DNA of 64,000 bases, from positions 11,110-75,109 of the forward strand of contig QKDR01000019.1 of the NCBI GenBank assembly GCA_003252515.1, read 5' to 3'. Positions within the stretch are counted from its first letter, which is position 1; every line of letters begins with the position of its first letter. Source of the DNA: Candidatus Delongbacteria bacterium. Lineage in GTDB: Bacteria > UBA4055. The notes below the pieces were generated by a model. The model was not told the DNA's origin. It saw only the letters and a list, made by a program, of their open reading frames with translations, and ran no database searches. Shown here one piece after another: positions 39,632 through 59,931 of this stretch. The translations under genes and the position numbers were made by a program.

Positions 39632-40975
39632 ATGTATAACATTGACAGGTTCATGGCAGAACTCGAAAGAAAAAATCCTTCTCAGCCGGAATTTATTCAG
39701 GCGGCAAGAGAAGTGATCGAATCGGTTATTGATGTTGTCAACGAGAATCCAGCTTACCTTAAAGCTAAGATTCTTGACAGGATCACCGAGCCGGACAGAG
39801 TATTCATGTTCAAAGTAGAGTGGGAAGATGACAACGGCGATGTTCAGGTTAACAAAGGCTACCGCGTACAGTTCAATAACGCGATCGGCCCTTATAAAGG
39901 CGGTCTCAGATTCCATCCGAGCGTAACACTCGGCGGTCTCAAATTCCTGGGTTTCGAACAAATGTTCAAGAACAGCCTTACAACTCTTCCAATGGGTGGA
40001 GGAAAAGGCGGATCTGATTTTAATCCTAAAGGAAAATCGGACAATGAAATTTTGAGATTCTGCAGATCTTTCATGACAGAACTACAGAAGTATATAGGAC
40101 CTGAGACAGACGTACCTGCAGGTGACATAGGTGTTGGAGGAAGAGAAATAGGGTATATGTATGGTCAGTATAAAAGGCTTAGAAGCGAGAATACCGGTGT
40201 ACTTACCGGAAAAGGACTCAACTGGGGCGGTTCGCTGATCAGACCTGAAGCTACAGGATTCGGCGCAGTTTACTACGCTGACGAGATGCTGAAATATAAA
40301 AAAGAATCGATGAAAGGTAAGATCGTATCCTGTTCCGGTTTCGGTAACGTTACATGGGGTACGGTTATCAAGGCTACAGAACTTGGCGCAAAAGTCGTAA
40401 CGATTTCAGGACCGGACGGTTATATATATGATAAAGACGGTGTAAATACTCAGGAAAAATTCAATTACCTTCTTGAATTAAGAGCGTCAAATAATGATAT
40501 AGTAGCACCTTACGCAAAAAAATTCCCGAATGCCAAATTCTTCCCTGGCAAAAAACCGTGGGGTGAGAAATGCGATATGGCTTACCCGTGTGCAATTCAG
40601 AATGAACTTAATGGTGAAGACGCAAAGAAACTTGTTGAGAACGGCTGTAAATATGTAATAGAAACTTCCAATATGGGATGTACTCCGGAAGCTGTCGAAG
40701 TATTTCTTCATGCTAAGATCGCATTCGCACCGGGAAAAGCTGCAAATGCCGGCGGTGTTGCTACTTCGGGACTTGAAATGAGCCAGAACTCAATGAAACT
40801 GTCATGGTCTAAAGAAGAAGTTGACGAGAAGCTGAAAGGGATCATGAAAAATATTCACGATGCAGGTGTAAAATACGGTAAAGATAAAAAAGGCAGCTTT
40901 GTAAATTACGTTAAAGGATCTAATATCGCCGGTTTCAAGAAAGTCGCCGACGCAATGATAGACTTAGGATACTAG
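39632..40975 (+). CDS. gdhA: NADP-specific glutamate dehydrogenase
   Basis: 447 aa with the GDH catalytic motif KGGLRFHPS, the lysine region (PMGGGKGGSDF) and a C-terminal Rossmann domain. Confidence 0.9.
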   Translation: MYNIDRFMAELERKNPSQPEFIQAAREVIESVIDVVNENPAYLKAKILDRITEPDRVFMFKVEWEDDNGDVQVNKGYRVQFNNAIGPYKGGLRFHPSVTLGGLKFLGFEQMFKNSLTTLPMGGGKGGSDFNPKGKSDNEILRFCRSFMTELQKYIGPETDVPAGDIGVGGREIGYMYGQYKRLRSENTGVLTGKGLNWGGSLIRPEATGFGAVYYADEMLKYKKESMKGKIVSCSGFGNVTWGTVIKATELGAKVVTISGPDGYIYDKDGVNTQEKFNYLLELRASNNDIVAPYAKKFPNAKFFPGKKPWGEKCDMAYPCAIQNELNGEDAKKLVENGCKYVIETSNMGCTPEAVEVFLHAKIAFAPGKAANAGGVATSGLEMSQNSMKLSWSKEEVDEKLKGIMKNIHDAGVKYGKDKKGSFVNYVKGSNIAGFKKVADAMIDLGY

Positions 40976-41093: not shown

Positions 41094-42149
41094 ATGCAAA
41101 AAGATTCCAGAGATTTTCTGCTTGAGCTGCTCAGAACTCCCTCGCCATCCGGTTACGAGTTTAATATACAGAAAAAATGGCTGAAATATACAGAAAAATA
41201 TGCAGACAGGACTGAAACTGATATCGGAGGCAACGCCATAGCCGTTCTCAACCCGAAAGCGAAATTCAAAGTACTCCTTGCCGGTCACTGCGATGAGATC
41301 GGATTTATAGTAACAAGGATAGACGGGGACGGATTCGTTTACTTCAGCCCTGTTGGCGGGATCAGCCATAAAGTAGCGCCGGGGTTAAGGGTCGAGATCC
41401 TTGGTGAGAAAGAAATTGTAACCGGAGTTATCGGAGTTAACGCGGAACATCACGGAGGACTGAAGGATAAATTCGAGTTCGATGACCTGTTCATTGACTG
41501 CGGGTTCAGGAATAAAAAACAGGCGGAGAAATTCATATCAACTGGTGACTACGCTGTCTATTCAAGCGAGATAACAGAGCTCAAGAACGGCCTTATATCG
41601 TCCAAAGCGCTTGACGACAAGAGCGGTTCATTTATAGTTGCTGAAGTTATAAAGAGACTGAAAGGTCAGCCGCTGAACGTTGGAGTGTATTCAGTAAGCA
41701 CGACAAGCGAGGAAACAGGTCTTCAGGGCGCATATTTCGCTTCTACCGGTATTGAACCGGATCTTGCGATCGCCTGCGACGTCACCTGGGCGACTGACTA
41801 TCCGACTGTGAACAGATCTAAATACGGCGACTACACAATTGAGGGCGGCCCGGTGCTCGCTGTAGGATCGCCTGTGAGCGTTAAGATAAATAAAATGCTG
41901 AAGGCAGCTGCAAAAGAGTTGAAGATCGGGATACAGACCGAGGTCACTCCAAGAATTACCGGTACTGACGCTGACAGGATAAGATTCACGAACAAAGGTG
42001 TTCCTGTAGCCCTCGTTTCGCTCCCGATACGATATATGCACTCTCCTGTAGAGACCGCCAGTATGAAGCAGATAGAGAATGTGATCAAACTGCTGGTCGG
42101 GTTCATAAAGAACATGACCGGAAAAGAAAATCTGAAACCTCTGGAATGA
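41094..42149 (+). CDS. M42-family metallo-aminopeptidase (FrvX/CelM-like)
   Basis: 351 aa. The N-terminus LLELLRTPSPSGYE and the metal-ligand regions (GHCDEIG, DDKSG, SEETG) are typical of M42. Confidence 0.8.
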   Translation: MQKDSRDFLLELLRTPSPSGYEFNIQKKWLKYTEKYADRTETDIGGNAIAVLNPKAKFKVLLAGHCDEIGFIVTRIDGDGFVYFSPVGGISHKVAPGLRVEILGEKEIVTGVIGVNAEHHGGLKDKFEFDDLFIDCGFRNKKQAEKFISTGDYAVYSSEITELKNGLISSKALDDKSGSFIVAEVIKRLKGQPLNVGVYSVSTTSEETGLQGAYFASTGIEPDLAIACDVTWATDYPTVNRSKYGDYTIEGGPVLAVGSPVSVKINKMLKAAAKELKIGIQTEVTPRITGTDADRIRFTNKGVPVALVSLPIRYMHSPVETASMKQIENVIKLLVGFIKNMTGKENLKPLE

Positions 42150-42150
42150 T

Positions 42151-42564
42151 ATGGAAGAAAAAGAAAGCGTAAGGATCGACAAATGGCTTAAAGTGGCAAG
42201 GTTTTTCAAGCAGAGGGAACTTGCGGCGGAAGCGGTCGAGTCCGGGAAAGTAAGGTTGAACGGCGAAAAAGTAAAACCGTCAAGAATTCTCAAACCAGGA
42301 GATCAGATTACAGTCAAACAGGGCTCATCATATGTAAAATATACCGTTCTTGGGATCACGGACAGATCATTACCGAAAGAACAGGCAAAGGAACTATATA
42401 AGATGCTGGATCCTGAAGAAAAAAGATCTAAAGAGACAAATGAACTGATGAAGATACTTGAAGAGCAGGATAAGAAAAATGCCGAAGAGATCAAGCATAA
42501 GGGAAGGCCTACAAAGAAGGACAGAAGGATACTTAACAAATATAAGTATATGACAAATGATTAA
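42151..42564 (+). CDS. S4-domain RNA-binding protein (Hsp15/HslR-like)
   Basis: 137 aa. The S4 fold is RIDKWLKVARFFKQRELAAEAVESGKVRLNG. A Lys/Glu-rich tail follows. Confidence 0.7.
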   Translation: MEEKESVRIDKWLKVARFFKQRELAAEAVESGKVRLNGEKVKPSRILKPGDQITVKQGSSYVKYTVLGITDRSLPKEQAKELYKMLDPEEKRSKETNELMKILEEQDKKNAEEIKHKGRPTKKDRRILNKYKYMTND

Positions 42565-43186
42565 AATAAAAGACCTGAAAAAAGATTTTCCCAAGTACGG
42601 ATTTTCGATCGAATGCAGGCATTTATCTGTAGAGTCCGGTACGGCGGCCGGGATCTATGGACCTGCAGGATCAGGAAAAACTCTGTTTACAAAAACTCTT
42701 GCCGGTCTGACAGGCAGTTATTCCGGATCAGTTGAGATAGCATCAACGGAACTTAAAAATACTTACAGAAGAAAAATAGGCTATCTTCCGTTCAGAAATG
42801 TGCTTTATGGAAATCTGACTTTAAAAGAAATGTCACATTATCTTCTGGGGCAATACAAATTAAAACGTGAGGAATTCGATCTTAAACTTGACTGGTTTTC
42901 ATCTTTATGGAATATAAGTCAATTCACGAACAGAAGAATCGCATCTCTGACCGACGGTCAGCTGCAGTCTGTCAAATTCTTTACATCCCTGCTTCACTCT
43001 CCAACTGTTCTGATCATAGACGAACCTTTTAATGGTCTGGGAACTGAGAGTACAGACAGTTTCTCCGCAGTCTTTGATGATATCAGGAAAAAACAGGTTA
43101 CTGTTATTGCCGCATCAGCCAATTTTGATCTTCTCGAAAAGATCGTTCAGATAAGTACTCAAATATCAAACGGCAAGATAGAATAA
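42557..43186 (+). CDS. Short ABC-transporter ATP-binding protein with a degenerate signature motif
   Basis: 209 aa with Walker A GPAGSGKT and Walker B LIIDEP. The signature is LTDGQ rather than LSGGQ. It overlaps the S4 gene by 8 nt. Confidence 0.65.
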   Translation: MIKIKDLKKDFPKYGFSIECRHLSVESGTAAGIYGPAGSGKTLFTKTLAGLTGSYSGSVEIASTELKNTYRRKIGYLPFRNVLYGNLTLKEMSHYLLGQYKLKREEFDLKLDWFSSLWNISQFTNRRIASLTDGQLQSVKFFTSLLHSPTVLIIDEPFNGLGTESTDSFSAVFDDIRKKQVTVIAASANFDLLEKIVQISTQISNGKIE

Positions 43187-43188
43187 AT

Positions 43189-43929
43189 ATGAGTTTATGC
43201 GGAATTATGAAAGAGATCAGGATATTTTTCAGAAACAGGACCGTTTCTGTTACTGTGATTTTTATGATAATACTAGAAATTACAGTAATTATAAAATCGG
43301 TAAATGTCATTCCTGACGGATCGGTAAGTCCTTTTTTCAGTTTCAGTTTTTTTCAGAAGCATTTGATACTGATGTTCTTTCCGTGTCTGCTTATTAATAT
43401 ACTCATTATGGCTTTTTCAGTTACTGCCGAAAGGCAGAACGGAATGCTGTCTAAACTGCTTCCGTACGGAGAATCTTTAATGGTCAGGAATAAAACAGCA
43501 GCAGCGACCGTGATCTCACTCTTTTTCAGTGTGCTATATGTGATCTCAGCTGTAATTGCAAGCGGATTAAAAACTTATTTGAGCTTCAAATTCGCAGTGT
43601 TCCTGACAGCATCATATATTTTTGTATTCTACGCGCTGTCATCATTCTCAGTTTCATTTGCTTTTATGTATTATCACGGAGACAACGACTATGGACCTGA
43701 ACTGAAGCAAATGCTCATATATATATTCATAGTGTCGGCAGCAGTTTCATCATTTTATTATTTCATATCAGAGAACATGATATATTTTTATGAATTTATT
43801 ACAGGATACAGACGAGTTTATCCTAACGCAGAGTTCATTTTATTCATGGTTCTGACTTTTATTTTTATGACTGGGGCGAGGATCATGCTTAAAAAGGCAG
43901 AGAAGAAGCTTTATGAAGAGCAATATTGA
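43189..43929 (+). CDS. ABC-2-type permease-like membrane protein (GldF-like size)
   Basis: 246 aa with ~6 TM helices. The ABC-2 family motif AERQNGMLSKLL follows TM2. Confidence 0.5.
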   Translation: MSLCGIMKEIRIFFRNRTVSVTVIFMIILEITVIIKSVNVIPDGSVSPFFSFSFFQKHLILMFFPCLLINILIMAFSVTAERQNGMLSKLLPYGESLMVRNKTAAATVISLFFSVLYVISAVIASGLKTYLSFKFAVFLTASYIFVFYALSSFSVSFAFMYYHGDNDYGPELKQMLIYIFIVSAAVSSFYYFISENMIYFYEFITGYRRVYPNAEFILFMVLTFIFMTGARIMLKKAEKKLYEEQY

Positions 43930-43983
43930 ACATTTGAAGTCTTTTTTAGTTTATTACAGGTTTAACCGGGAGTATTTACAGAT

Positions 43984-45828
43984 TTGAAGAACGTGTCACT
44001 TGCAATACTATTATGCTTAATTGCTGTAAGCAATGTGATGTCTCAGACAAGGGGATCTGCTATAAAGAAAGACAGAAACACCGCAGATAACAGGATCCTT
44101 GACAGACAATTGGCCTACGCTGTTTCTTCAGAGAAGAACGGCAATATCAATTCTGCTTACCAAGCTTACAGTAACCTGATGAAGAGATATCCTGCAGAAA
44201 TTAAAGTCTTAACCGGATTCGTTGACACGAGCATAAAAACTGGTAAAATAAAAGAATGTGAAATATCATTGAAACAGCTGGTCAACAAACATCCCGTTAA
44301 ACAGACGTTTACTGATCCTTCGGACGATTCGTCTTCATACGGAATAAAACTTCTCGGATTCATCGCTGAACTTTATTTCAGGACCGGAAGAAATCCCGAA
44401 GGTTATGAGATAATTACTCTGATAGATTCAGCAAATACTGAAAAGAAATTTAAGAAAGAGATCAAAGCCGCGGTGTTCATGAGATCAGGTTATTCTGAGG
44501 AAGCTGAAAAAATATACAAAGAACTGAGAAAGGAATCCGGAGATGAGAACTCTTATTCAGAGGAACTTTTCCCGATCTATCTCTTACAAAATAAAGTTGA
44601 GAAATTCACAGATGAGCTTATCAGATCCGCAGAATACAAAGATAAAAGACCGGATTCAGGTAAAATTAAAGATGCAGCATCTTTTAATCCGAAAGCCGAG
44701 CTATTAAGACTTTACGAGATCGGAGAGCTCAGAGACTCAATTCTTATGACCGCCGAAAAGTTGTTTCAAAAGAAAGGTTCTAAACATACCGGGCTGATCC
44801 TTTCTGAACTTTATTTCAGTTCGAATGAGTACGATAAAGCTTTTAGTGTCATGAAAAAATTATACGACGAAAAGGAAAGCCGCAGGCTATTAACTGATTT
44901 TGCATTAAAACTGTACAATTCGAAAGAATATGAAAAAGCATCAGATTTTTTCGAACTTCTGTATCAGAATGAAGGATCATCGCCGGATGGAGAACTACTG
45001 AGAATATACATCACCTGCCTTGAAAATTCTTCGAAATTTCTCTCAGCTGAAAATGTCATCAGGGAAAGCGGTATAAAGAACGGGGATCTGATGCTCGCTC
45101 AAATGTACCATAATCATATGGGGAAGTTAAACGAGTCAGCAAATCTGTACAAAAAAAATCTGACTGTCAATAAAAGCCTTTCTCATTACTGGCGGGATTA
45201 TCTGAACCTTATGATCGCTGAAAGGAAATTCAATGAAGCTCAGGATATCCTGTCTGAAATACTGAAAGGAAGTATAATGGATATATTCTCATCGGAGCCG
45301 TTCTTTGAGTTAAAAGCGCTTGAAGCCGAATTGCAGCTTTTTTCAGGTAATAAAGAAAAATTTATTACTCTTTCCGAACCTCTGATAAGAGATGATTTCT
45401 TTTCCGATTATGACAACGATCTTCTGAAAATAAGAAAAGACCTGAATATAATCGGCGGCGACAATGACCTGCTCGATAAATATCTTGAAGTGACCGCCTG
45501 CGGGATTGATATTTCAGGAGGTTTAAGAGAATTGGAATTCGTGTATGAAAAGGAAGGTGATCCCGAAAAGAAGAAACTTATTCTGGAAACGGCCTTAAGA
45601 TATCATATTTTCAGAAACGAAAAATTCGAGGTCATAAAACTTGCAGATTATATTAACGGGTCAGGAGAAATGAACAATTCTTTTGCAAGACTGATAACTG
45701 GTTTTTCGAATAAATTCCACAATGACTCCGATGTGAGAGAACTGCTTCTTGCATTATTAAAAAGCGGAATAGATGAGGAGGTCAAGGCTGAAGTAAGAGA
45801 TTTAATAAGAGAAAGAGAGCCGTCTTGA
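43984..45828 (+). CDS. Secreted TPR-like repeat protein
   Basis: 614 aa with a signal peptide and helical-repeat composition (Leu/Tyr/Glu-rich, ELYF..G motifs). Its stop overlaps the start of the next gene (ATGA). Confidence 0.5.
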   Translation: MKNVSLAILLCLIAVSNVMSQTRGSAIKKDRNTADNRILDRQLAYAVSSEKNGNINSAYQAYSNLMKRYPAEIKVLTGFVDTSIKTGKIKECEISLKQLVNKHPVKQTFTDPSDDSSSYGIKLLGFIAELYFRTGRNPEGYEIITLIDSANTEKKFKKEIKAAVFMRSGYSEEAEKIYKELRKESGDENSYSEELFPIYLLQNKVEKFTDELIRSAEYKDKRPDSGKIKDAASFNPKAELLRLYEIGELRDSILMTAEKLFQKKGSKHTGLILSELYFSSNEYDKAFSVMKKLYDEKESRRLLTDFALKLYNSKEYEKASDFFELLYQNEGSSPDGELLRIYITCLENSSKFLSAENVIRESGIKNGDLMLAQMYHNHMGKLNESANLYKKNLTVNKSLSHYWRDYLNLMIAERKFNEAQDILSEILKGSIMDIFSSEPFFELKALEAELQLFSGNKEKFITLSEPLIRDDFFSDYDNDLLKIRKDLNIIGGDNDLLDKYLEVTACGIDISGGLRELEFVYEKEGDPEKKKLILETALRYHIFRNEKFEVIKLADYINGSGEMNNSFARLITGFSNKFHNDSDVRELLLALLKSGIDEEVKAEVRDLIREREPS

Positions 45829-48800
45829 AGAATTTCAGCCTGAATATCTTATTTTATCTTCTGGCTTCTGTTTTTGTCTTTAAGCTGTCTGCCGAAAGTT
45901 TTCCTGTCAGACCGTTGTCCGACCTGTCCGGTACGGCAGATATTTATTCTGATGTCAGGCTGAACTATCTGGTAGTTTTTGCAAGAGATTCCGTTCTTTT
46001 GAAGGCGGACCCGAAAACATATAATACTGAAGTGGAAATTGACTCCACTTTCCGGTTCGTGACTTTGTATGAAAGAATTTATGATCAGGATGTCAGAACT
46101 CCGAGAACAGTGAAGATAGACGATTTCATAAAGATGAGACTAAATTACGAGAACCGCAATATATGGCTGATCTCAGTAAATAAAAATCTGGGAATTGAAA
46201 CGTCATCGCTACTTTCGGGAGATGAAATAGCTCTGGATATACCTTTCAAGATAAAATCCAAAACATTTCACCGTGTATTTGGTGGAAATAACATCGGTCT
46301 GAGAGTAAAAGGATCGCTTTCGATCAGTATTATAGGTCAGAAAAGCTACACCGATCTGCCTAACGCCGAGAATGAAAGTTTCGATTTCACGCTTGATCAG
46401 ACACAGAACATATCAATCAGGGGCAAAGTTGGAACTAAAGTGGATGTCGATATCGCTCAGAATACCGAATCATTCGATTTCGAGAACTCTTTAAAGATCA
46501 CTTATACAGGGGAGAGTGATGAAATAATTCAGAAACTTGAAGCCGGTAACATAGGCCTGAGTCTTCCCGGTACGAGGTATGTCAGTTTCAGCGGGGTTAA
46601 TAAAGGGCTCTTCGGATTAAAAGCAGAAACAAAGATCGGGAACCTGAAATCGACTTCAATAATGTCTTTCGAGAAAGGCAAGAAGAACCAAATTCACGCA
46701 CCAAACGGTGTCAGCAACCATGTGATTTCTCCGCGTGCGGACGAGTTTGAACGATATAAATATTTTTTCATTGACGAAGATTTCAGGGAGAACATGGGTT
46801 CCGCCGCCAATTTTCAAAATCTTACAGAGCATACAGCGCTCGAGACACCTTTATATAAGATAAAGAATTATTCTTTTCAACTTTTTATTACCAGATCGTC
46901 AACAGGTACGCGATATAATGCCGATATTTATATTGATTTCCTGAACAGGAACGATTCTTTAACGATAGGCGGAGTGGATAATCTATATGAAACATCCGTT
47001 GTAAAGCTTGTTGAAGACGACGAATATGAAATCAATTACGAACTCGGTTATATCAGACTGAAATCATTAAATCTCAGCGGTGATGAGATCCTTGCCGCAA
47101 GGTATATAAAACAGAATAAAACTAATACAAGCCAGCAGTATTCGGTCGGCAGTATCGATTCTACAGGGACAAAACTGGAACTTCAAATACTGGGTCAATG
47201 CGGTCAGGACCCATCCAATCCGTGGGATAAGCTCGAATGGAAGAACGTATATTCTCTAGGCGGAGTTGATATATCTGCGGATGAATTTAAACTTACGGTT
47301 CAGAAGAAGGAACCTACAGGTGTGAAAACGGAAGAATATGACTCTTCAGGAAATCCGAAATCATACTTATACTGGTTCGATATCAGCGATCCTGAAGTTC
47401 ATGACGAAGTCGATATTAAATTTCTGAACCAGTCAAAGGGAGAATTTATCTTTCCGTCACTGACGCCGTTCATGCCTGACCCGGCAACAAGCGTTATTTA
47501 TCGCGAAGCGGCTTCCGACACTCTTTTTACGGAACCTTTTATATACACTAACACTTCATCGTCATATACAACTTCAGATTTTAATCTGAAGTTCGAATTC
47601 TTCAGCAAATCAAGCACATATCCTCTCGGATTCAATGTGATCGAAGGATCAGAGGTTGTAAGGTCGGGGGCTACAACACTTGTCAAGGATGTTGATTATG
47701 TAATAAACTACAATTCCGGTGACCTGACGATAATAAATGAAAGGTATCTTACGGCGGATATAGACATTCTATATGAATCTGCGACGCTGTTTCAGCTCGA
47801 TCAGAAAATGCTTCTGGGTAACAGGCTCGAATACAGCTTCGGGAAGAATTCTTATATCGGAGCTACGGTATTATATCTGTCGGAAGAGACTAACGAAGAA
47901 AGAGTTCATGTCGGATATGAGCCCAAACAGAATCTTGTACTCGACCTTAACGGTCAGTCTGATTTCGATCTTCCGTTCCTCACGAAAGCCGTCGACTGGC
48001 TGCCTTTAATAGAAACAGATAAGGAATCCAATATTTCTTTCGAAGGAGAGATCGCCCAGATAATACCGAACCCGAACCCGCTTGGGGCGGCGTATATTGA
48101 TGATTTCGAGAACAGCAAAATAAAGAAAACTCTTGGAATAAGTTACGGATCGTGGACGGAAGCGTCTTTTCCGGATGAATACAGTACTTTTAAAAACTAT
48201 TCTCTGCTCCCGGAAGTAGATTCACTGGGAATACCGTTCCAGTATTTTTTAAAATCATATTCAGGTAGTGAAGATCTGTCATTTTACTGGTATAACCCTA
48301 AAGATGAAAATAAATACATTAAAGATCAGATATACAATGATGTTCCGGGAGATCAGAAGAATGATAAAGTAAATACTCTTAACATAGTTTTTACACCGTC
48401 AGTTTCCAATCCTGCGTTCGAGGACGAAAATATCAATGCAGCAGATTCATGGGGCGGAGTTATGAGATACCTTTATTCAGGTTATCAGGACATGCGTGAG
48501 ATAAAATATATAGAATTCCTTGCATCCGCGTCAAGAGATATAACGCTTAATATTGATATAGGTGATCTAAGTGAAGATGTTATACCTAACGGTGATCTGA
48601 ATACTGAAGATTTTAAATATGAGAACAATGTGCTGGATGTGGGAAGTGACTCTGAAGATGTAGGTGTTGATCAAATATCCGGTGATAATGATTATCATGC
48701 TTTAACCGATCCTGAAGGAAGAGAAAAGAAGTTCTATGAATTTTTTTCATTTGACAACCATCCTGCTCAGGACGGAAGCCCTACACCTGATTCGCAGATC

Positions 48801-51800
48801 GGTAACGACTGGGACTTCTGCAAAACTGAAAATAACGGGAAACTGGATTCGGAGGACCTTGACGGAAGTAATGATGTTGACAGAAGTATTCGGGCATACA
48901 GATATACAATAAACCTGAAATCGGATCCGGGCCTAGATAACGAATATGTGGTCAGTGTTGATTTCGGTTCAGATTTCGCGCTGTACAGGATACCGGTCAA
49001 GGATTTTAAAACCTATCTTAATAAAGAACCTGATCTTTCAAGAATGAAATATATAAAATTATGGTTGAATAATGCTAAAGATGATCTTTATCCCTCAAAA
49101 GTTGATTTCGTCAGTTTTGATCTTGTAGGCAACGAGTGGGCTGCAAAGGGTGACAACATAGGACTGGTCGAACCAAAGACCATTAACAATGAAGAAGATA
49201 AGGAGCGGTATCAATCTCCTCCGGGCGTGAAAAGATACGACGATAACGGAAATCTGGAACCTGAACAGTCATTAGCGTTGAGCATAAGTTTGACTGATAA
49301 TTTAAGTGCATATGAATATGAAAATCCGGGAAGATATGCTTTTCTTACAAAAAAGATAAATGAGGGAGAGAACTATCTACTTTATGAACAGCTTAAAATG
49401 TTCGTTCATGGCGGTACTCCGGCGTTAAATACGGAATGGGATGAGGAAAGATCTCTATATTTTATCTACAGGTTCGGAACGGATTCAGTCAATTATTACG
49501 AGTATCGGTCGAAACTGGTTAAAGGATGGAAGAGCGACCTGGTTAATAATCAGATGGTGATCGAATTGACTGACCTAACAAATCTGAAGACATCAAGATC
49601 AGATACAGGAAGTCCGGTCGATTCAATATATCTGGTCAATTATAAAGACGATAATATAAAAAGATATATCGGTATCAGGGGGAACCCTACTCTTCAGTCT
49701 GTAAAATTCTTTAACGCCGGAATACTTGATTCCGCATATACGGAGCTGAATACAGAGATCTGGATCGACGAGCTCAGACTTGCTAAAGTAACTAAAGAGA
49801 CAGGTATGGCTATGAGGGCTAAAACTCATATTCAGGTAGCCGATGTGGGTACTATCGACGCTGAAGTCACGAAACAGGATGAAGAATTTCACAGGATCGA
49901 GGAAAATAAAGGTTCCGGTGTAAATCAGCTTAGTACCAGTTTTAATACGTCATTGAACTTAGATAAGCTGACACCGAAAAAATGGGGACTGTCGCTTCCG
50001 GTAAGGTACAGTTATAATAATGCCGATTCATACACAAAATATCAGGGGACAACGGATATACTGGTCGATAAGGATAATATTCCGGACTCGGTAAGAACAC
50101 GGACAACAAGGAATCAGTATGATTTCTCTATTAGAAAAACATCAAAATCCAACAGTCCGTATCTAAAATATACACTGGATAATTTAAGTCTTACCGGAAA
50201 TGCATCCTTCAGTGATGCATCAAATCCAAGCTATATCTCACAGAAGACCGAGGCTTATAATTATAATCTTGGATATTCTCTCGGTCTGCCTGATTCGTGG
50301 TTCAGCTTCAGCCCGTTCGGATGGGGAAAAGATATCTCGTTTTTCAAAAGCATCAGCGGTGTTAAATTCGCGTTCTTCCCGAACAGCTACAATTTCTCAA
50401 TACAGTCCGGTCAGTCGGAAACTGTTTCTCTTTCCAGGCGCACTAATGCGACTCCGACGGCAAGCCGTTCTTTTTTGGTCACAAGGAATTTCTCGACGAG
50501 TCTTACTCCATTACCTTTCATAACTTCGAATTATTCCCTTTCACTCAAGTCGGATATGTATAAAAAGGCCGTTGAAACGAACAGACTTGATACAGATACT
50601 GTGATCACTGTATACAACAGAGATATCGGCGATCTTTTCAAATTAGATTTCGGAGAACTGACCAGCTTTGACAATACATTAAAGAACAACGTTAAGATAA
50701 ACGCGTCAAAATATCTGACTAACGATCTAAGTTATAATACCGGGTATAACTGGACAGGAAATCTGACGAGTGCAATACCCAGCAGCAATATAAAGAACAG
50801 GTACGATTCCAAACTTAATTCCAGGATTAAAGTAAAGGAAATTATCGGAAGCGTCCAGGCAGGTATAAGTAATATTTTTCCCGAAAAGAAGATCAGTGAT
50901 AACAGAGATCAGAAAGACTCAGTGAAAGTTGTTACCGAAGAAGATAAAAAGCAGTCAGGCGCATCAAGATTGTCAAGAACCAGTACAGCATCTTCAGGCA
51001 AAAAGAAATCAATTCTGGATTTTATTAAAAATAATCTTTCAGATATTGCTTTATCATATTCTCAGGGAAGGGAAAACTCGTTCTCTGATATTAAATCTCT
51101 CGATCAGGCAAACCCTTTATTCATGTTAGGATTCTCAAGTGAACCTGAAGATGAAAATTATTCTTCATCAAGCTGGAGCGGCAACTGGGGAATGAGCGGG
51201 AATACAAGACTAAGTCTAACCAAAAATTTGAGTTTTGACGGGATATCGTACCAGTTCACAAGATCATACAGGCAGAATAATAATGAAGGTTTTACAGGTA
51301 GCGACAGCGAGACGAAGTTCATTTGGCCCTGGGTAACCGACGAAGAGCACAGGAAAACAGGAGCCAATCCCCTGATCCTTCCAAATTATTCTATTACGAT
51401 CTCAGGTCTTAAAGACTTGCTGCAGGCAAAAGAAAGTATATCCAGTCTGACTATCACTCATTCAAAATCCGGATCTGAAACAAAATCATGGTATATTGAC
51501 GGAGATGCTCCGGGAATGTATCTTACAGGTATTCCGGATCTCGCCGGATCAGACCTCAGGATCAGATCTGTAGGATATGCTACAGGATTTTCACCGCTGG
51601 CAGGAATAAGCCTGAGTTTAAAGAACGGGCTGAGTTTTAGCGCGAATTATAATTATTCGTTCGATATGAAAGAAAACTATATTTATAATGATGAAAATAA
51701 AAGTATCCAGTCCGGTGACAAGAAATATACAAGAGAATTACGAGTGTCGGCGGGATATAACCAGAAAGGCGGTTTCGACGTGCCGTTCAATTTCTGGCCT

Positions 51801-52097
51801 TTCAACGGGAAGAGACTTGACAATGATATAACCTATAACCTGTCGGTTACATATAATTCGAACGATACTCACAAATACGATATCGAGCTTAAAGAATATG
51901 AAGGACTGGATAACGGCATCAAATCCGATAATTTCACGGTCTCACCCGACATAACATATAAAATTTCCAGAAAACTGAACGGCACGATATCATACTCGTA
52001 CAATTATAATGAAAGCAAAAGCTACGAAGCGAGAAGCATAGTAAACACAAATCATAAATTCGAGCTAAGAGCCGTACTCAGTATAACAGGGAGATAG
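45825..52097 (+). CDS. Giant secreted beta-rich outer-membrane protein, SprA-like (candidate T9SS translocon)
   Basis: 2090 aa with a signal peptide and an N/S/T/Y/G-rich composition carrying amphipathic beta-strand periodicity throughout. Size and context (T9SS CTD cargo in the window, FCB-type features) match the SprA/Sov family. The assignment rests on size and composition, not on a recognised motif. Confidence 0.5.
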   Translation: MKNFSLNILFYLLASVFVFKLSAESFPVRPLSDLSGTADIYSDVRLNYLVVFARDSVLLKADPKTYNTEVEIDSTFRFVTLYERIYDQDVRTPRTVKIDDFIKMRLNYENRNIWLISVNKNLGIETSSLLSGDEIALDIPFKIKSKTFHRVFGGNNIGLRVKGSLSISIIGQKSYTDLPNAENESFDFTLDQTQNISIRGKVGTKVDVDIAQNTESFDFENSLKITYTGESDEIIQKLEAGNIGLSLPGTRYVSFSGVNKGLFGLKAETKIGNLKSTSIMSFEKGKKNQIHAPNGVSNHVISPRADEFERYKYFFIDEDFRENMGSAANFQNLTEHTALETPLYKIKNYSFQLFITRSSTGTRYNADIYIDFLNRNDSLTIGGVDNLYETSVVKLVEDDEYEINYELGYIRLKSLNLSGDEILAARYIKQNKTNTSQQYSVGSIDSTGTKLELQILGQCGQDPSNPWDKLEWKNVYSLGGVDISADEFKLTVQKKEPTGVKTEEYDSSGNPKSYLYWFDISDPEVHDEVDIKFLNQSKGEFIFPSLTPFMPDPATSVIYREAASDTLFTEPFIYTNTSSSYTTSDFNLKFEFFSKSSTYPLGFNVIEGSEVVRSGATTLVKDVDYVINYNSGDLTIINERYLTADIDILYESATLFQLDQKMLLGNRLEYSFGKNSYIGATVLYLSEETNEERVHVGYEPKQNLVLDLNGQSDFDLPFLTKAVDWLPLIETDKESNISFEGEIAQIIPNPNPLGAAYIDDFENSKIKKTLGISYGSWTEASFPDEYSTFKNYSLLPEVDSLGIPFQYFLKSYSGSEDLSFYWYNPKDENKYIKDQIYNDVPGDQKNDKVNTLNIVFTPSVSNPAFEDENINAADSWGGVMRYLYSGYQDMREIKYIEFLASASRDITLNIDIGDLSEDVIPNGDLNTEDFKYENNVLDVGSDSEDVGVDQISGDNDYHALTDPEGREKKFYEFFSFDNHPAQDGSPTPDSQIGNDWDFCKTENNGKLDSEDLDGSNDVDRSIRAYRYTINLKSDPGLDNEYVVSVDFGSDFALYRIPVKDFKTYLNKEPDLSRMKYIKLWLNNAKDDLYPSKVDFVSFDLVGNEWAAKGDNIGLVEPKTINNEEDKERYQSPPGVKRYDDNGNLEPEQSLALSISLTDNLSAYEYENPGRYAFLTKKINEGENYLLYEQLKMFVHGGTPALNTEWDEERSLYFIYRFGTDSVNYYEYRSKLVKGWKSDLVNNQMVIELTDLTNLKTSRSDTGSPVDSIYLVNYKDDNIKRYIGIRGNPTLQSVKFFNAGILDSAYTELNTEIWIDELRLAKVTKETGMAMRAKTHIQVADVGTIDAEVTKQDEEFHRIEENKGSGVNQLSTSFNTSLNLDKLTPKKWGLSLPVRYSYNNADSYTKYQGTTDILVDKDNIPDSVRTRTTRNQYDFSIRKTSKSNSPYLKYTLDNLSLTGNASFSDASNPSYISQKTEAYNYNLGYSLGLPDSWFSFSPFGWGKDISFFKSISGVKFAFFPNSYNFSIQSGQSETVSLSRRTNATPTASRSFLVTRNFSTSLTPLPFITSNYSLSLKSDMYKKAVETNRLDTDTVITVYNRDIGDLFKLDFGELTSFDNTLKNNVKINASKYLTNDLSYNTGYNWTGNLTSAIPSSNIKNRYDSKLNSRIKVKEIIGSVQAGISNIFPEKKISDNRDQKDSVKVVTEEDKKQSGASRLSRTSTASSGKKKSILDFIKNNLSDIALSYSQGRENSFSDIKSLDQANPLFMLGFSSEPEDENYSSSSWSGNWGMSGNTRLSLTKNLSFDGISYQFTRSYRQNNNEGFTGSDSETKFIWPWVTDEEHRKTGANPLILPNYSITISGLKDLLQAKESISSLTITHSKSGSETKSWYIDGDAPGMYLTGIPDLAGSDLRIRSVGYATGFSPLAGISLSLKNGLSFSANYNYSFDMKENYIYNDENKSIQSGDKKYTRELRVSAGYNQKGGFDVPFNFWPFNGKRLDNDITYNLSVTYNSNDTHKYDIELKEYEGLDNGIKSDNFTVSPDITYKISRKLNGTISYSYNYNESKSYEARSIVNTNHKFELRAVLSITGR

Positions 52098-52099
52098 AA

Positions 52100-53347
52100 T
52101 TGACGGACCTTTTCTCATATCAGACGGACGAACCTGAAGAAAAACCTGAGAAAAAAAATGAGGAATCCGTTTATTCTGTACATGAAATATCTATGCTGGT
52201 CAAAGGAATTCTCGAACCTGAATTCTCAGATATCTGGATAGAAGGTGAAATGTCAAACTACAAGAAACACAGTTCGGGACATCATTATTTCAGTCTGAAG
52301 GACGAAAAAGCCGTTATCAGTTGCGTAATGTGGAGAAGTACGGGAGACAGGCTGGATTTTGCTCCAGAAAACGGACAAAAAGTCAAATTAAGGGGAAGTA
52401 TAACTGTTTATGAGGCAAGCGGCAGATATCAGGTGGACGTTAAAAAGATAGTACTTTCAGGTATAGGTTATCTGCAGGCTCAATTCGAGGCGCTGAAGAG
52501 AAAGCTGTTCGAGGAAGGTCTTTTCGGTCAGGCGCACAAAAAACGCCTTCCGTTCCTCGTAAGGAACCTGGGTGTAGTGACAGCGGAGACCGGGGCCGCG
52601 TTCCAGGATATAAAAAAAGTGATCCGTTCAAGATCACCGTTCATGAATATCTATTTATACAATGCAAGAGTACAGGGGAAAGGAACTGAAGCAGAGATCG
52701 TTGACGGTATCCGTTATTTCAATTCAAAATCCGGACTGGTCGACGTGATCATTATCGGGAGGGGAGGCGGATCGCTTGAAGATCTGTGGACTTTTAATGA
52801 GGAGGTCGTAGCCAGGGCTGTTTACGATTCCGGGATACCTGTCATATCGGCAGTCGGGCACGAGATTGATTTTTCGATCTCCGACTTCGTCGCCGATATA
52901 AGAGCCGCTACGCCTTCACACGCTGCTGAGATCGTCAGTCTGAACGCTAAAGAAGAGCTTTATAAAATATCTCAATACGAATCCAGAGTGAACAACCTTG
53001 TCGTTTCATATTTCAATTTTCAGAAGGAAAAGATAAGAGGGATCGAGAATTCGCACGCTTTCAGAATGCCTGAGGATATTATAAAAAACTACTCGATGTC
53101 CCTTGATAATCTTGAGGATAATTTCGACAGCTACTTCAGTCAGAGAATATCGAACGACAAACTGAGACTTGAGCATTTTGAGACGATCTTCAGATCGCTT
53201 AATCCTGAATCCGTGCTTAACAGAGGTTATGCGATAGTAAAGGATAAAAAGACCTCAAAGATATTATCCGAAGCTAAACGGATAATAAAAGGTCAGGAAC
53301 TCGAGATCAAGTTCAAAGACGGCAGTATTGACGCTGTCAGCGAGTAA
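52100..53347 (+). CDS. xseA: Exodeoxyribonuclease VII large subunit
   Basis: 415 aa with the N-terminal OB fold (WIEGEMSNYKKHSSGHHYFSLKD) and the catalytic core GRGGGSLEDLWTFNEE...SAVGHEIDFSISDFVAD, a strong match to XseA. Confidence 0.95.
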   Translation: MTDLFSYQTDEPEEKPEKKNEESVYSVHEISMLVKGILEPEFSDIWIEGEMSNYKKHSSGHHYFSLKDEKAVISCVMWRSTGDRLDFAPENGQKVKLRGSITVYEASGRYQVDVKKIVLSGIGYLQAQFEALKRKLFEEGLFGQAHKKRLPFLVRNLGVVTAETGAAFQDIKKVIRSRSPFMNIYLYNARVQGKGTEAEIVDGIRYFNSKSGLVDVIIIGRGGGSLEDLWTFNEEVVARAVYDSGIPVISAVGHEIDFSISDFVADIRAATPSHAAEIVSLNAKEELYKISQYESRVNNLVVSYFNFQKEKIRGIENSHAFRMPEDIIKNYSMSLDNLEDNFDSYFSQRISNDKLRLEHFETIFRSLNPESVLNRGYAIVKDKKTSKILSEAKRIIKGQELEIKFKDGSIDAVSE

Positions 53348-54203
53348 TTTTTTTAAGGCTGCGTTTCATCGACGAGTAAAATAAATAAGATAAATTAATA
53401 CGGCCTAAGAAACCTTTAATGAACTTAGATTTGAATTTTCCCATAGTATAGAAGAAAGGATTGAATACGATTGATCCGAAGGTCGAAGTGAGTAGCCCGT
53501 AACGTATGTTTTTTCTGAATTCAGGATATTTTTGTATGAGAAGCGAAAGATTTTTGCCTGAATTTTCCAGTTGATCAAGCCACTGAAATACGGTTTTATC
53601 GTGATAATGTAACAAGCTGTTCGTGCGGACGAAAGATATTTTTCCTCCTTCCGATTCTATGCGCAGACCGAGCTCGGGATCTTCCCATCCGTAGCCTTCA
53701 AAGTTCTCGTCGAATTTTCCGATGCGTTCGAAGAACGGTCTTTTTATGCTGCAGAACGCAGTAGTGAAATAATTGCTTTTAACGTTCTGACCTGACCCTT
53801 TCCTGTTAGCGCCGCGCGTGTTGAGGAATTCGTTCAGGAACGATCCCTTACCGTCAGTTCTGATATTGACGACATTGGAGAAAACCGCGTCCGCGCCGTT
53901 CTCAAGTTCAGCCAGATGTTTTGCGAACATGTTCTCTTTTACTTTGATATCGTCGTCAATGAAGAAAAGCACGGGGTGCTTACAGACCGCGGCGCCCCTG
54001 TTCCTCGACTTCGAACGCCCGATATTAACATCGTTGTTCATGACCGTCACTCTAGCGTCGCCGAATTCGCCGATCGCACATTCAGGACAGTCGTTCACGA
54101 TCACGATCTCGAACTTATCCCTGATATCAAGTTCGAGGATCGAACTAACCGTTCTTTTAAGCGCATCAGGCCTGTTATATGTCGGGATTACTATCGAGAA
54201 CAT
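53337..54203 (-). CDS. Family 2 glycosyltransferase
   Basis: 288 aa. FSIVIPTYNR and the DDD region (FIDDDIKV) define the GT-A fold. Confidence 0.8.
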   Translation of the reverse strand: MFSIVIPTYNRPDALKRTVSSILELDIRDKFEIVIVNDCPECAIGEFGDARVTVMNNDVNIGRSKSRNRGAAVCKHPVLFFIDDDIKVKENMFAKHLAELENGADAVFSNVVNIRTDGKGSFLNEFLNTRGANRKGSGQNVKSNYFTTAFCSIKRPFFERIGKFDENFEGYGWEDPELGLRIESEGGKISFVRTNSLLHYHDKTVFQWLDQLENSGKNLSLLIQKYPEFRKNIRYGLLTSTFGSIVFNPFFYTMGKFKSKFIKGFLGRINLSYLFYSSMKRSLKKITR

Positions 54204-55308
54204 TTTTCGCCTTTTTCAGTCTGTAGAAATATGCGGTAACAAAGAACAGCGTAATTAAAGAGACAGCTACTTTCCAGTCTCTTCCCGGCAATCTGTACCT
54301 GAAATAGATATGGTGCGGGATCGAAAGCACGCAGGCTGATAATACTATAATTCTGCCTTTAAGTTCAATGAACCCGTACTTTTCGAATATTGAACCAAGC
54401 AGAAAAAAGAAAACGGGGAACATCGGTACGATCAACCTTTCAGTATCACCCGCAAGAAAACAGCTGGCATAGTAGATCAGGATCAATGCGAGAAAATGGA
54501 TATTCTTTTTAAAGAAATCCTTTGTCGTACTCCAGAATACGAGCGGTATGAAGGTAAGAGGTATAAAAGTGTTGATTATCCGGTAATATGTTATGGGATT
54601 GAACAGCTTGTTCGATTCGTCGAAATGCAGTCTCCCGAAAGAATAAAGCATACCTGAACCGGTCGCGGATTCAGTGACGATCAGAGATCTCAGTATCGCG
54701 AATATAAAAAACGCAGGAAGTACCGAATAAATGATCTTCATTCTGTAGGGCTTTTTGTCTTTCACTATATAGTAATATAGAACTGCGGCAGGAACAAGAA
54801 ACAATATTGTTTCTCTGTTGAGTACGCCTAAAGCAAGAACCGCGCTCATCGTGAAAAAATTGTTTTGCTTTAACTTAATAAGAAACAGTAAGATCAGGAT
54901 GTGGGTCAGAAGATCGTGGACGTCATAAAAATCCCAGACGGGAAATCCGAAAGTATATCTGCCTGCTATGAACAGAATTGTGAGATAGAATACAGTATCC
55001 TCTTTTAACCCGTAAACCTTCAAGTATCTTAAGAAAACGAATGGCAGGATGAAAGACATTATCAGGGTAATTATATAAAAACTCATATCCACATCGAACG
55101 GCATAAGACCGGCAATGTATGGCAAAAGTATCCTGTAGCCGAAGTTTCTTGACACTGTATCGTCAAAACCCGGGGAAGCAAGAGCCATCTGTCTGTAATT
55201 CTGAATGTCCGGAATGTCGGAAAATTGCGCGTGAGTAATATCTATCCGGCCGTAATATACCACCATGACAGCTGTAATAATAAATATAAACAGGTACCTG
55301 TTCTTCAT
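54175..55308 (-). CDS. Polytopic membrane protein, possibly a GT-C-type glycosyltransferase, co-transcribed with the GT2
   Basis: 377 aa with ~10 TM helices. It overlaps the GT2 start by 29 nt. Confidence 0.4.
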   Translation of the reverse strand: MKNRYLFIFIITAVMVVYYGRIDITHAQFSDIPDIQNYRQMALASPGFDDTVSRNFGYRILLPYIAGLMPFDVDMSFYIITLIMSFILPFVFLRYLKVYGLKEDTVFYLTILFIAGRYTFGFPVWDFYDVHDLLTHILILLFLIKLKQNNFFTMSAVLALGVLNRETILFLVPAAVLYYYIVKDKKPYRMKIIYSVLPAFFIFAILRSLIVTESATGSGMLYSFGRLHFDESNKLFNPITYYRIINTFIPLTFIPLVFWSTTKDFFKKNIHFLALILIYYASCFLAGDTERLIVPMFPVFFFLLGSIFEKYGFIELKGRIIVLSACVLSIPHHIYFRYRLPGRDWKVAVSLITLFFVTAYFYRLKKAKNVLDSNPDI

Positions 55309-57609: not shown

Positions 57610-58398
57610 TTGGAATTTTATGAAATAATAATACTTCTTATAACAGGTCTCGCTTCAGGGTTCCTGTCCGGGTTTCTCGGTATAGGCGGAGGTATTATCA
57701 CCATACCTGTAATGATCATCTTTCTGGAAGGAAAAGTTCCGCAGGAGAACCTGTTTCTCGCAACTTCAACAATATCTCTCGCAATAATCGTGCTGTCATC
57801 GCTTAACGCGTCGCTAAAGCATATAAGACACGGGAATTATTACAAACAAGCCATAATACCTCTCGTTCTGGGATCAATAATCGGACCTATACCGGGTAAC
57901 TACATCTGTTATGTGATCGACGATAAAAGCAGGATAACCTTTTTTGCGGTCGTGATATTACTTCTCGCGTTCAAGATACTCTGGTTCAGAAACAAAGATG
58001 ACAACGACAGAGCAAGTTTCAATTTCTGGATCATGCTTGCAGCGGGAATCGTTATGGGTATGATATCGTCGATGACGGGCCTTGGCGGAGGAGCCGTTTT
58101 AGTGCCTCTTCTGACTGTATTTTTGCACTTCGATATTAAAAAAGCTGTCGGAATATCCACGATCGTCATGATCTTTACTGCTGCTTCCGGACTTGTTGGC
58201 AGGATTTATACGGGGGTCAGCGGCTATCTGTCATACGATGTATTCCTTCCGTTCTTCCTGACAATAACCGTCGGAACTCTGTTCTCGGCCAGACTGGGAG
58301 CGGCATTCAATATAAAAAGCAAGAGTAAGAATATAAAAGTATTCGCGTCAATTCTTTATTTTATTGTGGCGATAAAGATGATCTGGAGAGTGATTTGA
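57610..58398 (+). CDS. TauE/SafE (DUF81) sulfite/anion exporter-family membrane protein
   Basis: 262 aa with duplicated 4-TM repeats carrying GxGGG motifs (GFLGIGGGII, GLGGGAVLVPLL). Confidence 0.8.
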   Translation: MEFYEIIILLITGLASGFLSGFLGIGGGIITIPVMIIFLEGKVPQENLFLATSTISLAIIVLSSLNASLKHIRHGNYYKQAIIPLVLGSIIGPIPGNYICYVIDDKSRITFFAVVILLLAFKILWFRNKDDNDRASFNFWIMLAAGIVMGMISSMTGLGGGAVLVPLLTVFLHFDIKKAVGISTIVMIFTAASGLVGRIYTGVSGYLSYDVFLPFFLTITVGTLFSARLGAAFNIKSKSKNIKVFASILYFIVAIKMIWRVI

Positions 58399-59931
58399 GC
58401 GGTTCTGCCGGAAATACGAGAGTAAGAGGGAATATCTTTAAGATATTTACAGGGACTTTCATTTCAAGAATATTCGGGTTCGTTCGCGAGATGGTCGTCG
58501 CATGGTTCTTCGGTACATCGAAGACTGCCGACGCATTCTCTTTCGCGCTGATATTCCCGAACCTTTTCAGGCAGATCCTCGGCGAGGACATGGTGGAACG
58601 CGCATTCATGCCTCCGTTCAAGACGAAATACGATCAGGGTGACGCTGCGGGTTCCTGGAAGTTCCTGTCAGTTATATTCAACTGGTTTTTCGTATCGCTG
58701 CTGATCGTGATGACGCTGTTGTATCTTATTACTCCGCTGGTATTCATTCTGCTGAAGAAATTCAACACGGGAGCGGACTTCGATTACGATCTCTCGCTTA
58801 AGCTGATCTTCATACTTATGCCGTTCATGCTGTTCATTGGACTGGCCGCCTTCGTCGGGAGCCTGCTGGATATTCGGCTTCGCCCCGATCATGCTGAGCG
58901 TCGGTGTCATCCTGGGTATCGTCTGGCTTGAGCCCGTAATCGGCGATTATTCGATCGCAGCAGGTTATCTTCTCGGCGCTTTCCTGCAGTTCATAGTCCA
59001 CATTCCGTTCCTCGTATCGAAGAAGTTCAGGGGCGAAACGGAAATAAAATATTCGCTTACCTTTAAGGACGGCTCGAACGACTATAGGGTAATAAAGCGG
59101 GAGTCGAAGATAATCACTCTCAACGCTGTGTTCAACAAGAGCGCCGAGTTCTTCGACAGGCTCATCGCAACATGGCTGATCACCGGTTCAGCTTCCTCAC
59201 TGTTCTATTCTCAGAGGCTTTTCCAGCTTCCGTTCGCGATAATTTCTCTTCCGATCGCAAGGGGAATAAATCCTCTGCTGAATACGCTCAAAAGCCTCAG
59301 CGACCGCGAAAAGTTCACTGAACTTTTCGAGAAAGGCAGCCGCATTTACTACAGCATACTCATACCCGTCACGGTTATCTGCATAGCGGCATCGGACGAG
59401 ATTGTTTCTGTCATATACAGGCGCGGCGCCTTTGACTCAGCTTCGCTGAGCATGACCTCGCAGGCCTTCGTCATGTATTCCCTCGGCCTTATCCCGGTCA
59501 GCTTCGCAGGATATTACATGCGTGTCCTGTCTCTGGTCAGCAAGAACATTCATTCCCTTAAAGTATCAGTCATCAGCGCAGGTATCAACGTCGTACTGTC
59601 GTATATCCTCGCCGTCTTCACTCCAATGGGCCATGCCGGCGTCGCTCTCGGAACTTCGCTCGCTTTCTATTACAATATGATAAGACTCAACACCTACATC
59701 AAAGTCGAAATGAAAGATCTGCTCCTCCCCGGGAAAGCGATATTCTTTACAAAAGGGAACATCATTTCAATAATAACCGGGATCATCCTGATCTTTTTAC
59801 TCAGATCGGAATTTATTTCAAATGTTAAAATTTGCGAGGGCAGTATAAACATTCCCGTTACCGGAACTCTGAAAGCACTTGTGATAATCGCAGTATATAT
59901 GCTGATCGTAAGGATCACTAGTAAAAAATAA
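58395..59931 (+). pseudogene. murJ: murJ (MviN) lipid II flippase, split into two ORFs by a frameshift near 58869-58880; translation begins at TTG 58395
   Basis: ORF 58395-58931 encodes the MurJ N-terminus (FGFVREMVVAWFFGTSKTADAF, compare E. coli [22 protein letters not shown]). ORF 58837-59931 continues the protein in the +1 frame. The junction FVGSLLDI / FGFAPIM aligns to E. coli FVGALLNAWNRFSIPAFAP. Confidence 0.65.

Follow-up and report, generated by a model that had tools for sequence, protein, structure and literature searches.

The 64,000-nucleotide stretch of DNA analyzed here (contig QKDR01000019.1 of a Candidatus Delongbacteria bacterium; hereafter, the window) carries sprA, the gene for the T9SS (type IX secretion system) outer-membrane pore, within a string of seven genes on the plus strand (Table 1). 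In order, these encode an M42-family peptidase, an S4-domain Hsp15-like protein, an ATP-binding cassette (ABC) ATPase, an ABC-2-type permease, a secreted tetratricopeptide repeat (TPR) protein, SprA, and the nuclease XseA. The initial annotation had reported overlaps or gaps of no more than 55 nucleotides (nt) throughout, and an open reading frame (ORF) scan returned the same coordinates, with spacings, in order, of +1, −8, +2, +54, −4, and +2 nt. Its family labels for the seven genes agreed with Pfam and NCBIfam, the S4 protein being below the cutoff of the NCBIfam Hsp15 model (76.6 versus 148 bits) and the permease sub-threshold. Tight co-directional packing is ordinary in bacteria; the above-chance feature is not the packing itself but that part of the string is kept in distant relatives. 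As described below, the predicted operon core is TPR-sprA-xseA, not the seven-gene string, and the TPR protein is probably a functional partner of SprA.

That the giant protein might be SprA/Sov had been proposed earlier, with a TIGR04189 search and structure prediction named as checks. On this equivalog model, whose cutoff is 200 bits, the protein reached 727.9 bits over 4 stretches (E = 3.1e-218), PF14349 (SprA_N) matched residues 1008 to 1408 with 111 bits (cutoff, 27), and the solved Flavobacterium johnsoniae SprA (6h3j_A) was matched at 1.4e-55 by phmmer. An AlphaFold (AF2) model of residues 1 to 1200, made from 50 homologues, was mostly beta (predicted local distance difference test [pLDDT], 76.9), and in a Foldseek search of the PDB only SprA chains were significant, from 8gl8_A (6e-58) to 6h3j_A (4e-39), with the first non-SprA match at 2e-3. 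The global template modeling (TM) score was low (0.29, with ~20% identity in the structural alignment) because just half of the barrel was modeled. A Sec signal peptide is present, and conservation with SprA homologues spans the full length. The giant protein is SprA/Sov, the T9SS outer-membrane pore, so that both the profile search and the predicted beta-rich structure bore out the proposal.

The closest database relatives of the window SprA (57 to 69% identity) are named 'cell surface protein SprA' and belong to Candidatus Delongbacteria, a group that NCBI places under the candidate phylum Delongiibacteriota; the window DNA comes from a Candidatus Delongbacteria-like genome of the Fibrobacteres-Chlorobi-Bacteroidetes (FCB) group. 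With F. johnsoniae SprA (6H3I/6H3J/8GL8) it has in common an above-cutoff profile score, the SprA_N domain, matches in sequence and predicted fold, the signal peptide, and a sorting-domain cargo nearby. It differs in length (2090 versus 2403 amino acids [aa]), in its non-Bacteroidota host, and in lying in a TPR-sprA-xseA unit, which was not seen at the loci of KSB1, of LCP-89, or at a third locus, L008. The shorter length had been singled out as a peculiarity against the ~2400 aa of Bacteroidetes proteins, but this did not hold up: a length of 2000 to 2200 aa is the usual one for SprA proteins of non-Bacteroidota FCB lineages (Delongbacteria, Cloacimonadota, KSB1, LCP-89, and lineages without a name). 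One partial SprA (P0025), 46% identical to the window protein, is deposited as 'Candidatus Atribacteria bacterium 4572_76'; its contig is probably mis-binned, since Atribacteria is not an FCB-group phylum.

Gene order was compared between the window and the sprA loci of relatives (designated L001 to L017). The complete string gdhA-M42-S4-ABC-permease-TPR-sprA-xseA was found only in L001 and L009, where SprA is 68% identical to that of the window. The ABC pair, the S4 gene, and the M42 gene were all missing from the fetched loci of L002/3, L011, and L012 (Delongbacteria; SprA identity, 55 to 57%), of L004/5 (a Cloacimonadota metagenome-assembled genome; 38%), and of L013. Where the sequence preceding the TPR gene was read, its content varied: L002 has PmbA/TldD there, L004 has a polysaccharide deacetylase, and L013 has a long intergenic gap. 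The TPR gene was the first of the unit in L002 (upstream gene on the opposite strand) and L013 (upstream gene 466 nt away). A scan of a genome collection with the TPR profile gave 4 loci, its back-translated patterns being narrow. The TPR gene itself was directly 5′ of sprA in 12 of the 13 examined loci that hold a TPR-family match (the window, L001, L002/3, L004/5, L009, L010, L011, L012, L013, L014, L016, and L017). The lone exception, P0147 in L015, matched the family profile at 5.6e-11 away from sprA; it carries many canonical TPR Pfam matches and is probably a generic TPR protein outside the family. Homology of the TPR proteins was evident between the window and L002 (2e-54) and between the window and the Cloacimonadota copy (7e-27). 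No such TPR gene was found at the sprA loci of KSB1, LCP-89, and another lineage (SprA identity, ~30%), and the TPR-sprA arrangement is therefore specific to a Delongbacteria/Cloacimonadota-level clade. In two metagenome contigs, L014 (6103 to 12633) and L016 (3544 to 5783), sprA again comes after the TPR gene but is broken into several ORFs, partly on the opposite strand in L016, which gene callers reported as separate hypothetical proteins; the breaks are likely due to assembly errors or pseudogenes.

Between the stop codon of the TPR gene and the start of sprA, the spacing was −4 nt in four loci and −1, 0, +5, +5, +13, and +36 nt in others. The window junction reads cgtcTTGAag, and the same TTGA overlap was present in L001, L009, and L010. 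The initial annotation had described the two genes as translationally coupled through ATGA; the 4-nt overlap and the conserved adjacency stood, whereas the sequence proved to be TTGA, a geometry that fits translational coupling. The identity of xseA, also given earlier, was firm (TIGR00237, 450.4 bits against a cutoff of 180, with PF13742 and PF02601, an OB-fold plus Exonuc_VII_L). It followed sprA at every Delongbacteria/Cloacimonadota-level locus that reached that far (L001, L002, L004, L009 to L011, and L013), mostly with gaps of +1 to +15 nt (+185 nt in L002). XseA is probably an operon passenger, of which a role in secretion is not expected; the linkage of a secretion pore gene to that of a DNA-repair nuclease is phylum spanning and has no obvious functional reason. 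Converging on xseA from the minus strand in the window are two mutually overlapping genes, for a family-2 glycosyltransferase and a 377-aa protein without a family match, kept in all Delongbacteria loci that reach that far and not in Cloacimonadota.

At the loci without the TPR gene, the gene directly 3′ of sprA is another one: in KSB1 (L007, 14759 to 15697), LCP-89 (L006, 14276 to 15193), and L008 (16304 to 17260), it encodes a protein of ~305 to 318 aa with a Peptidase_M28 Pfam match. For the KSB1 copy, full-length matches were obtained to glutamine cyclotransferases whose structures have been solved from oral Bacteroidota (6qro, 1.7e-60; 6qql, 1.6e-50). A glutaminyl-cyclase gene tied to sprA outside the Bacteroidota is notable because the 'Q-rule' is reported not to hold over the entire FCB group (PMC5837995).

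Table 1. Features of the 64-kb window, by position
Feature	Position	Strand	Length	Basis or remark
TPR plus CHAT domain protein	29-4066		1345 aa	
Protein preceding the cargo gene	26833-28488		551 aa	No family match
Secreted T9SS cargo (predicted)	28513-29229	+	238 aa	TIGR04183 Por_Secre_tail
Ankyrin-repeat/metallo-beta-lactamase-like fusion	30352-32490	−	712 aa	
gdhA	39632-40975	+		
M42-family peptidase	41094-42149	+	351 aa	PF05343, 261.8 bits
S4-domain Hsp15-like protein	42151-42564	+	137 aa	PF01479, 49.2 bits
ABC ATPase	42557-43186	+	209 aa	PF00005
ABC-2-type permease	43189-43929	+	246 aa	ABC2_membrane_4, sub-threshold
Gap between permease and TPR genes	43930-43983		54 nt	Contains TTTTAGTTTA
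TPR protein	43984-45828	+	614 aa	TTG start; Pfam TPR_19, TPR_14, ANAPC3
TTGA overlap	45825-45828	+	4 nt	sprA TTG start on TPR TGA stop
sprA	45825-52097	+	2090 aa	TTG start; TIGR04189, PF14349
xseA	52100-53347	+	415 aa	TTG start; TIGR00237
Family-2 glycosyltransferase	53337-54203	−		
Protein without family match	54175-55308	−	377 aa	
murJ, first ORF	58395-58931			N-terminal part of TIGR01695
murJ, second ORF	58837-59931			C-terminal part of TIGR01695
GWxTD-domain protein	62127-63485			

The TPR protein begins at a TTG codon (the database version is 611 aa long), and a signal peptide was found, in agreement with the earlier description of the protein as secreted. Behind it, the AF2 model (pLDDT, 82.8) shows ~32 helices that form one continuous, all-alpha solenoid. 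The family is small: its profile, searched against 1.84 billion representative proteins, returned 50 clusters at an E value of ≤1e-3 and 23 at ≤1e-10, the tail being generic TPR proteins. Tail matches of 810 to 1026 aa were considered as SprE-like and discarded as either generic TPR proteins (PEP-CTERM PrsT, PilW, and similar types) or proteins of no family. In the N-termini of 24 family members, signal peptides end in A, S, or G followed by a conserved Gln, and among close members Q21 and R23 (mature Q21-x-R23; window positions 44044 to 44052) are invariant; no conserved lipobox Cys was found across the 24 N-termini. Since a signal peptide and a Gln, and no Cys, are conserved, the TPR protein is predicted to be soluble and periplasmic, not a lipoprotein. 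The conserved Gln is specific to the TPR family, as other exported proteins of the window have no Gln at the predicted +1 position, which led us to reject a genome-wide 'Q-rule'. Identity within the family falls to 19 to 24%, and TPR proteins diverge faster than SprA (28 to 45% versus 55 to 69% identity).

In published work on Flavobacterium and Porphyromonas, the partners of the SprA barrel are PorV, a plug, a Skp-like chaperone, and SprE/PorW, which is a TPR lipoprotein; its energy is supplied by the GldLM/PorLM motor. SprE/PorW binds the rim and N-terminus of SprA in the T9SS Extended Translocon and is essential (PMC10994853; PMC8754138). It is 870 to 1160 aa long (PMC10994853; PMC8754138), and a lipobox Cys at +1 has been reported for all PorW family members (PMC8754138). 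The window protein resembles SprE/PorW as a predicted periplasmic TPR solenoid of extended architecture, with a similar repeat number and SprA as presumed partner; it departs from SprE/PorW in lacking a lipobox Cys, in its length of 614 aa, and in that its model shows no insertion of the size of the Finger region.

Membership in SprE/PorW was looked for in several ways, none of them positive. The PDB copies that were searched include SprE, within 8gl8, and TPR solenoids are not easily distinguished from one another. A phmmer search of the TPR protein against the PDB did not return SprE at an E value of ≤1, and SprE was not among the PDB matches of a 24-sequence family profile listed down to E = 0.028, which were generic TPR proteins led by LapB (3e-9, the best natural match) and designed TPRs, with PilF also present. 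Nor was SprE in the Foldseek top 50 of the TPR model, which were generic TPR and half-a-TPR (HAT) solenoids (TM scores, 0.15 to 0.31), and in the NCBIfam scan the TPR protein matched no T9SS TPR model. Without the lipid anchor, the size, or specific similarity, the TPR protein is not a detectable SprE/PorW member. It is also like the TPR assembly factors dedicated to large outer-membrane proteins, such as the BamD, LapB, PilF, and PilW class, in being an exported TPR protein encoded with or near an outer-membrane client, but similarity to these is of the generic TPR kind with no family cutoff reached, and several of that class are lipoproteins or face the cytoplasm. sprE/porW is not known to adjoin sprA/sov in F. 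johnsoniae or Porphyromonas gingivalis, whereas the window TPR gene overlaps sprA.

The initial annotation had likened the ABC pair to GldA/GldF, and the two pairs are indeed alike in that an ABC ATPase is followed by a permease of ~240 aa with an ER-x-x-G motif; the ERQNGML motif was confirmed as AERQNGML in the permease. The ATPase carries Walker A GPAGSGKT and Walker B VLIIDEP with a degenerate signature (LTDGQ) and no H-loop His. On the GldA model (TIGR03522), however, its score was 76 bits where the cutoff is 402.6; the unrelated ABC ATPase model WtpC gave as much (76.4 bits), followed closely by DrrA (70.7 bits) and GlcV (69.1 bits), and the protein is 209 aa long compared to 301 model positions. 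The permease reached 22.7 bits on ABC2_membrane_4 (cutoff, 27) and matched no NCBIfam model at an E value of ≤0.01, the GldF model (TIGR03518) included. No gldG accompanies the pair, the next gene being that of the TPR protein. Moreover, the pair was not co-inherited with sprA: L002, L004, and L013 lack it upstream of TPR-sprA, the fetched parts of L011 and L012 yielded no copy, and among the loci compared it was present only in the closest relatives, L001 and L009. A GldA/GldF identity was therefore rejected on the curated cutoffs and the lack of conserved linkage, and the pair is best described as a presumed orphan local neighbor, outside the T9SS module and without a demonstrated link to secretion or gliding. 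In KSB1 (L007, 4430 to 7083) and L008 (5045 to 7485), an opposite-strand lptF/lptG pair precedes sprA; these lipopolysaccharide (LPS)-transport ABC permeases are not homologous to the window permease by Pfam.

The M42 peptidase and the S4 protein are housekeeping neighbors on the common strand, kept at the sprA locus in L001 and L009 only among the loci compared, and gdhA lies 118 nt upstream on the same strand. In a sequence scan, no terminator-like hairpin was found in any gap of the seven-gene string; promoter and terminator counts were no higher than in shuffled controls, so that the scan was uninformative for this phylum. In the gap between the permease and TPR genes lies the block TTTTAGTTTA, which L001 and L009 share without a change even though the flanking proteins have diverged to ~45% identity. 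It may serve the TPR-sprA-xseA unit as an internal promoter or as a signal for translation.

We propose that the TPR protein and SprA would be made together and that the TPR protein would act on SprA in the periplasm, either as a scaffold in the role of the Bacteroidota SprE/PorW or as a dedicated assembly chaperone for a very large barrel. Taking these two roles together, a functional partnership with SprA is the probable explanation of the arrangement. An SprE-like role can reasonably be inferred from the compartment, the fold class, and the obligate coupling to sprA. Several observations weigh against a partnership. What links the two proteins is genomic coupling; xseA, which encodes a cytoplasmic nuclease, has an equally tight and wide linkage to sprA, so that adjacency by itself is no proof of TPR function; similarity of the TPR protein is generic only (LapB, 3e-9), with SprE not among the listed sequence and fold matches; P0147 is a match to the TPR profile (5.6e-11) that does not adjoin sprA; and SprA is not universally dependent on such a protein, since the loci of KSB1, LCP-89, and the third lineage are without it. 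The case for the TPR protein is nevertheless stronger than that for XseA because the whole known distribution of the family lies 5′ of sprA, both products are exported, and SprE provides a precedent.

Two alternatives concern the identity of the genes and the extent of the unit. The giant protein, being large, beta-rich, and secreted, could be taken for a large adhesin or S-layer-type surface protein and not a translocon, the fallback named in the initial annotation; its SprA profile and structure matches (TIGR04189, SprA_N, solved SprA, and Foldseek) and its full-length conservation with SprA homologues exclude this, and we attach practically no probability to it. All seven genes could form a single T9SS or gliding assembly operon, with the ABC pair as a GldA/GldF equivalent that serves SprA. 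Their common strand, gaps of ≤54 nt without a terminator-like hairpin between them, the GldF-like size and ERQNGML-type ABC-2 motif of the permease, and the retention of the complete string in two close relatives, L001 and L009, agree with such an operon, but it is very improbable given that the GldA score ties with those of unrelated ABC families, that there is no GldF and no GldG, that the pair is absent at L002, L004, and L013 (and from the fetched parts of L011 and L012), and that the unit opens at the TPR gene in L002 and L013; the TTTTAGTTTA block may likewise mark an internal start before the TPR gene. A reading of the seven genes as one conserved functional unit was thus abandoned, the ABC pair being missing upstream of TPR-sprA both in relatives with SprA identities of 55 to 57% and in Cloacimonadota.

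The other two concern the TPR protein. It might be a true, much diverged SprE/PorW orthologue that has lost the lipid anchor, the Finger region, and the C-terminal extension. A common fold class (~15 helical hairpins compared to 13 TPR units in SprE), an equal compartment and presumed partner, and the quick divergence of TPR proteins, already at 19 to 24% identity within the window family, could accommodate this, yet no Cys is conserved where PorW has its lipobox Cys (PMC8754138), SprE was missed by phmmer (E ≤ 1), by the profile (to 0.028), and by the Foldseek top 50 although it was in the library (8gl8), and 614 aa falls well short of 870 to 1160 aa. We consider orthology unlikely. Somewhat more credible, though still doubtful, is that the TPR gene is a mere syntenic neighbor with a periplasmic role of its own, for instance in envelope or LPS assembly of the LapB/BamD type, held in place by operon inertia like xseA. 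It is xseA that lends this weight, as a tight, phylum-spanning linkage to sprA without a plausible function, together with the finding that no natural PDB protein matches the family profile better than LapB and the much faster divergence of the TPR proteins relative to SprA. However, xseA is universal, whereas the whole known range of the TPR family matches the site 5′ of sprA (12 of 13 loci, the exception looking like a generic TPR protein). Across lineages the two genes continue to overlap by 4 nt or to abut, both proteins are exported, and there is experimental precedent for a TPR protein that partners SprA (PMC10994853). We therefore retain the partnership of the TPR protein with SprA as the favored reading.

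T9SS is a known system; what is new is the lineage-specific TPR-sprA arrangement. A literature search found no description of an overlapping, non-lipoprotein TPR partner of SprA. We suggest tentatively, as a possibility that falls short of being likely, that in the Delongbacteria/Cloacimonadota clade a TPR protein, soluble and non-lipidated, encoded in overlap with sprA and produced along with SprA, takes the place of the lipoprotein SprE/PorW in the T9SS translocon. If this were true, the replacement would amount to an 'extended translocon' that either evolved independently or was radically simplified, and it would show which SprE features (lipid anchor, Finger region, and PorN-binding tail) type IX secretion can spare. 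The mechanism of T9SS is known almost entirely from Bacteroidota. A lineage with SprA hard-wired to a much smaller, unanchored TPR partner would offer a natural minimal comparison for the task of the periplasmic scaffold, and its TPR and sprA genes would make a compact pair to use in structure prediction or co-expression. For annotation, the name sprA holds, gldA/gldF should not be applied to the ABC pair, and the core to be recorded is TPR-sprA-xseA.

Use of the system in this genome is suggested by a gene on the same contig, 17 kb upstream of sprA. Its product carries a signal peptide and the NYPNPFNP motif and scored 46.9 bits on TIGR04183 (cutoff, 23; residues 160 to 235, a type-A sorting domain); it is a predicted T9SS cargo. 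In L001, a Por_Secre_tail protein adjoins the sprA locus. In published work, the list of FCB phyla with a possible T9SS already includes Cloacimonadota (PMC11285876). PorV, PorU, GldK/L/M/N, SprT/PorT, and any T9SS machinery gene other than sprA were not found in the 64-kb window by Pfam and NCBIfam. The protein encoded before the cargo gene has no sorting-domain match, and in its mature N-terminus it is similar to the cargo protein (…YYISIEDQWDGVYDF… versus …FYIEVIDKDGVSHFDF…); the two may be paralogues.

The remaining ORFs of the window encode central metabolism, a resistance-nodulation-division (RND) efflux set, hisS, murJ, and similar functions. murJ is split into two overlapping ORFs, which points to a frameshift, due to either a pseudogene or an assembly error. 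Three further proteins are unusual: one combines TPR with a CHAT domain, one joins many ankyrin repeats to a metallo-beta-lactamase-like domain, and one has a GWxTD domain (Table 1).

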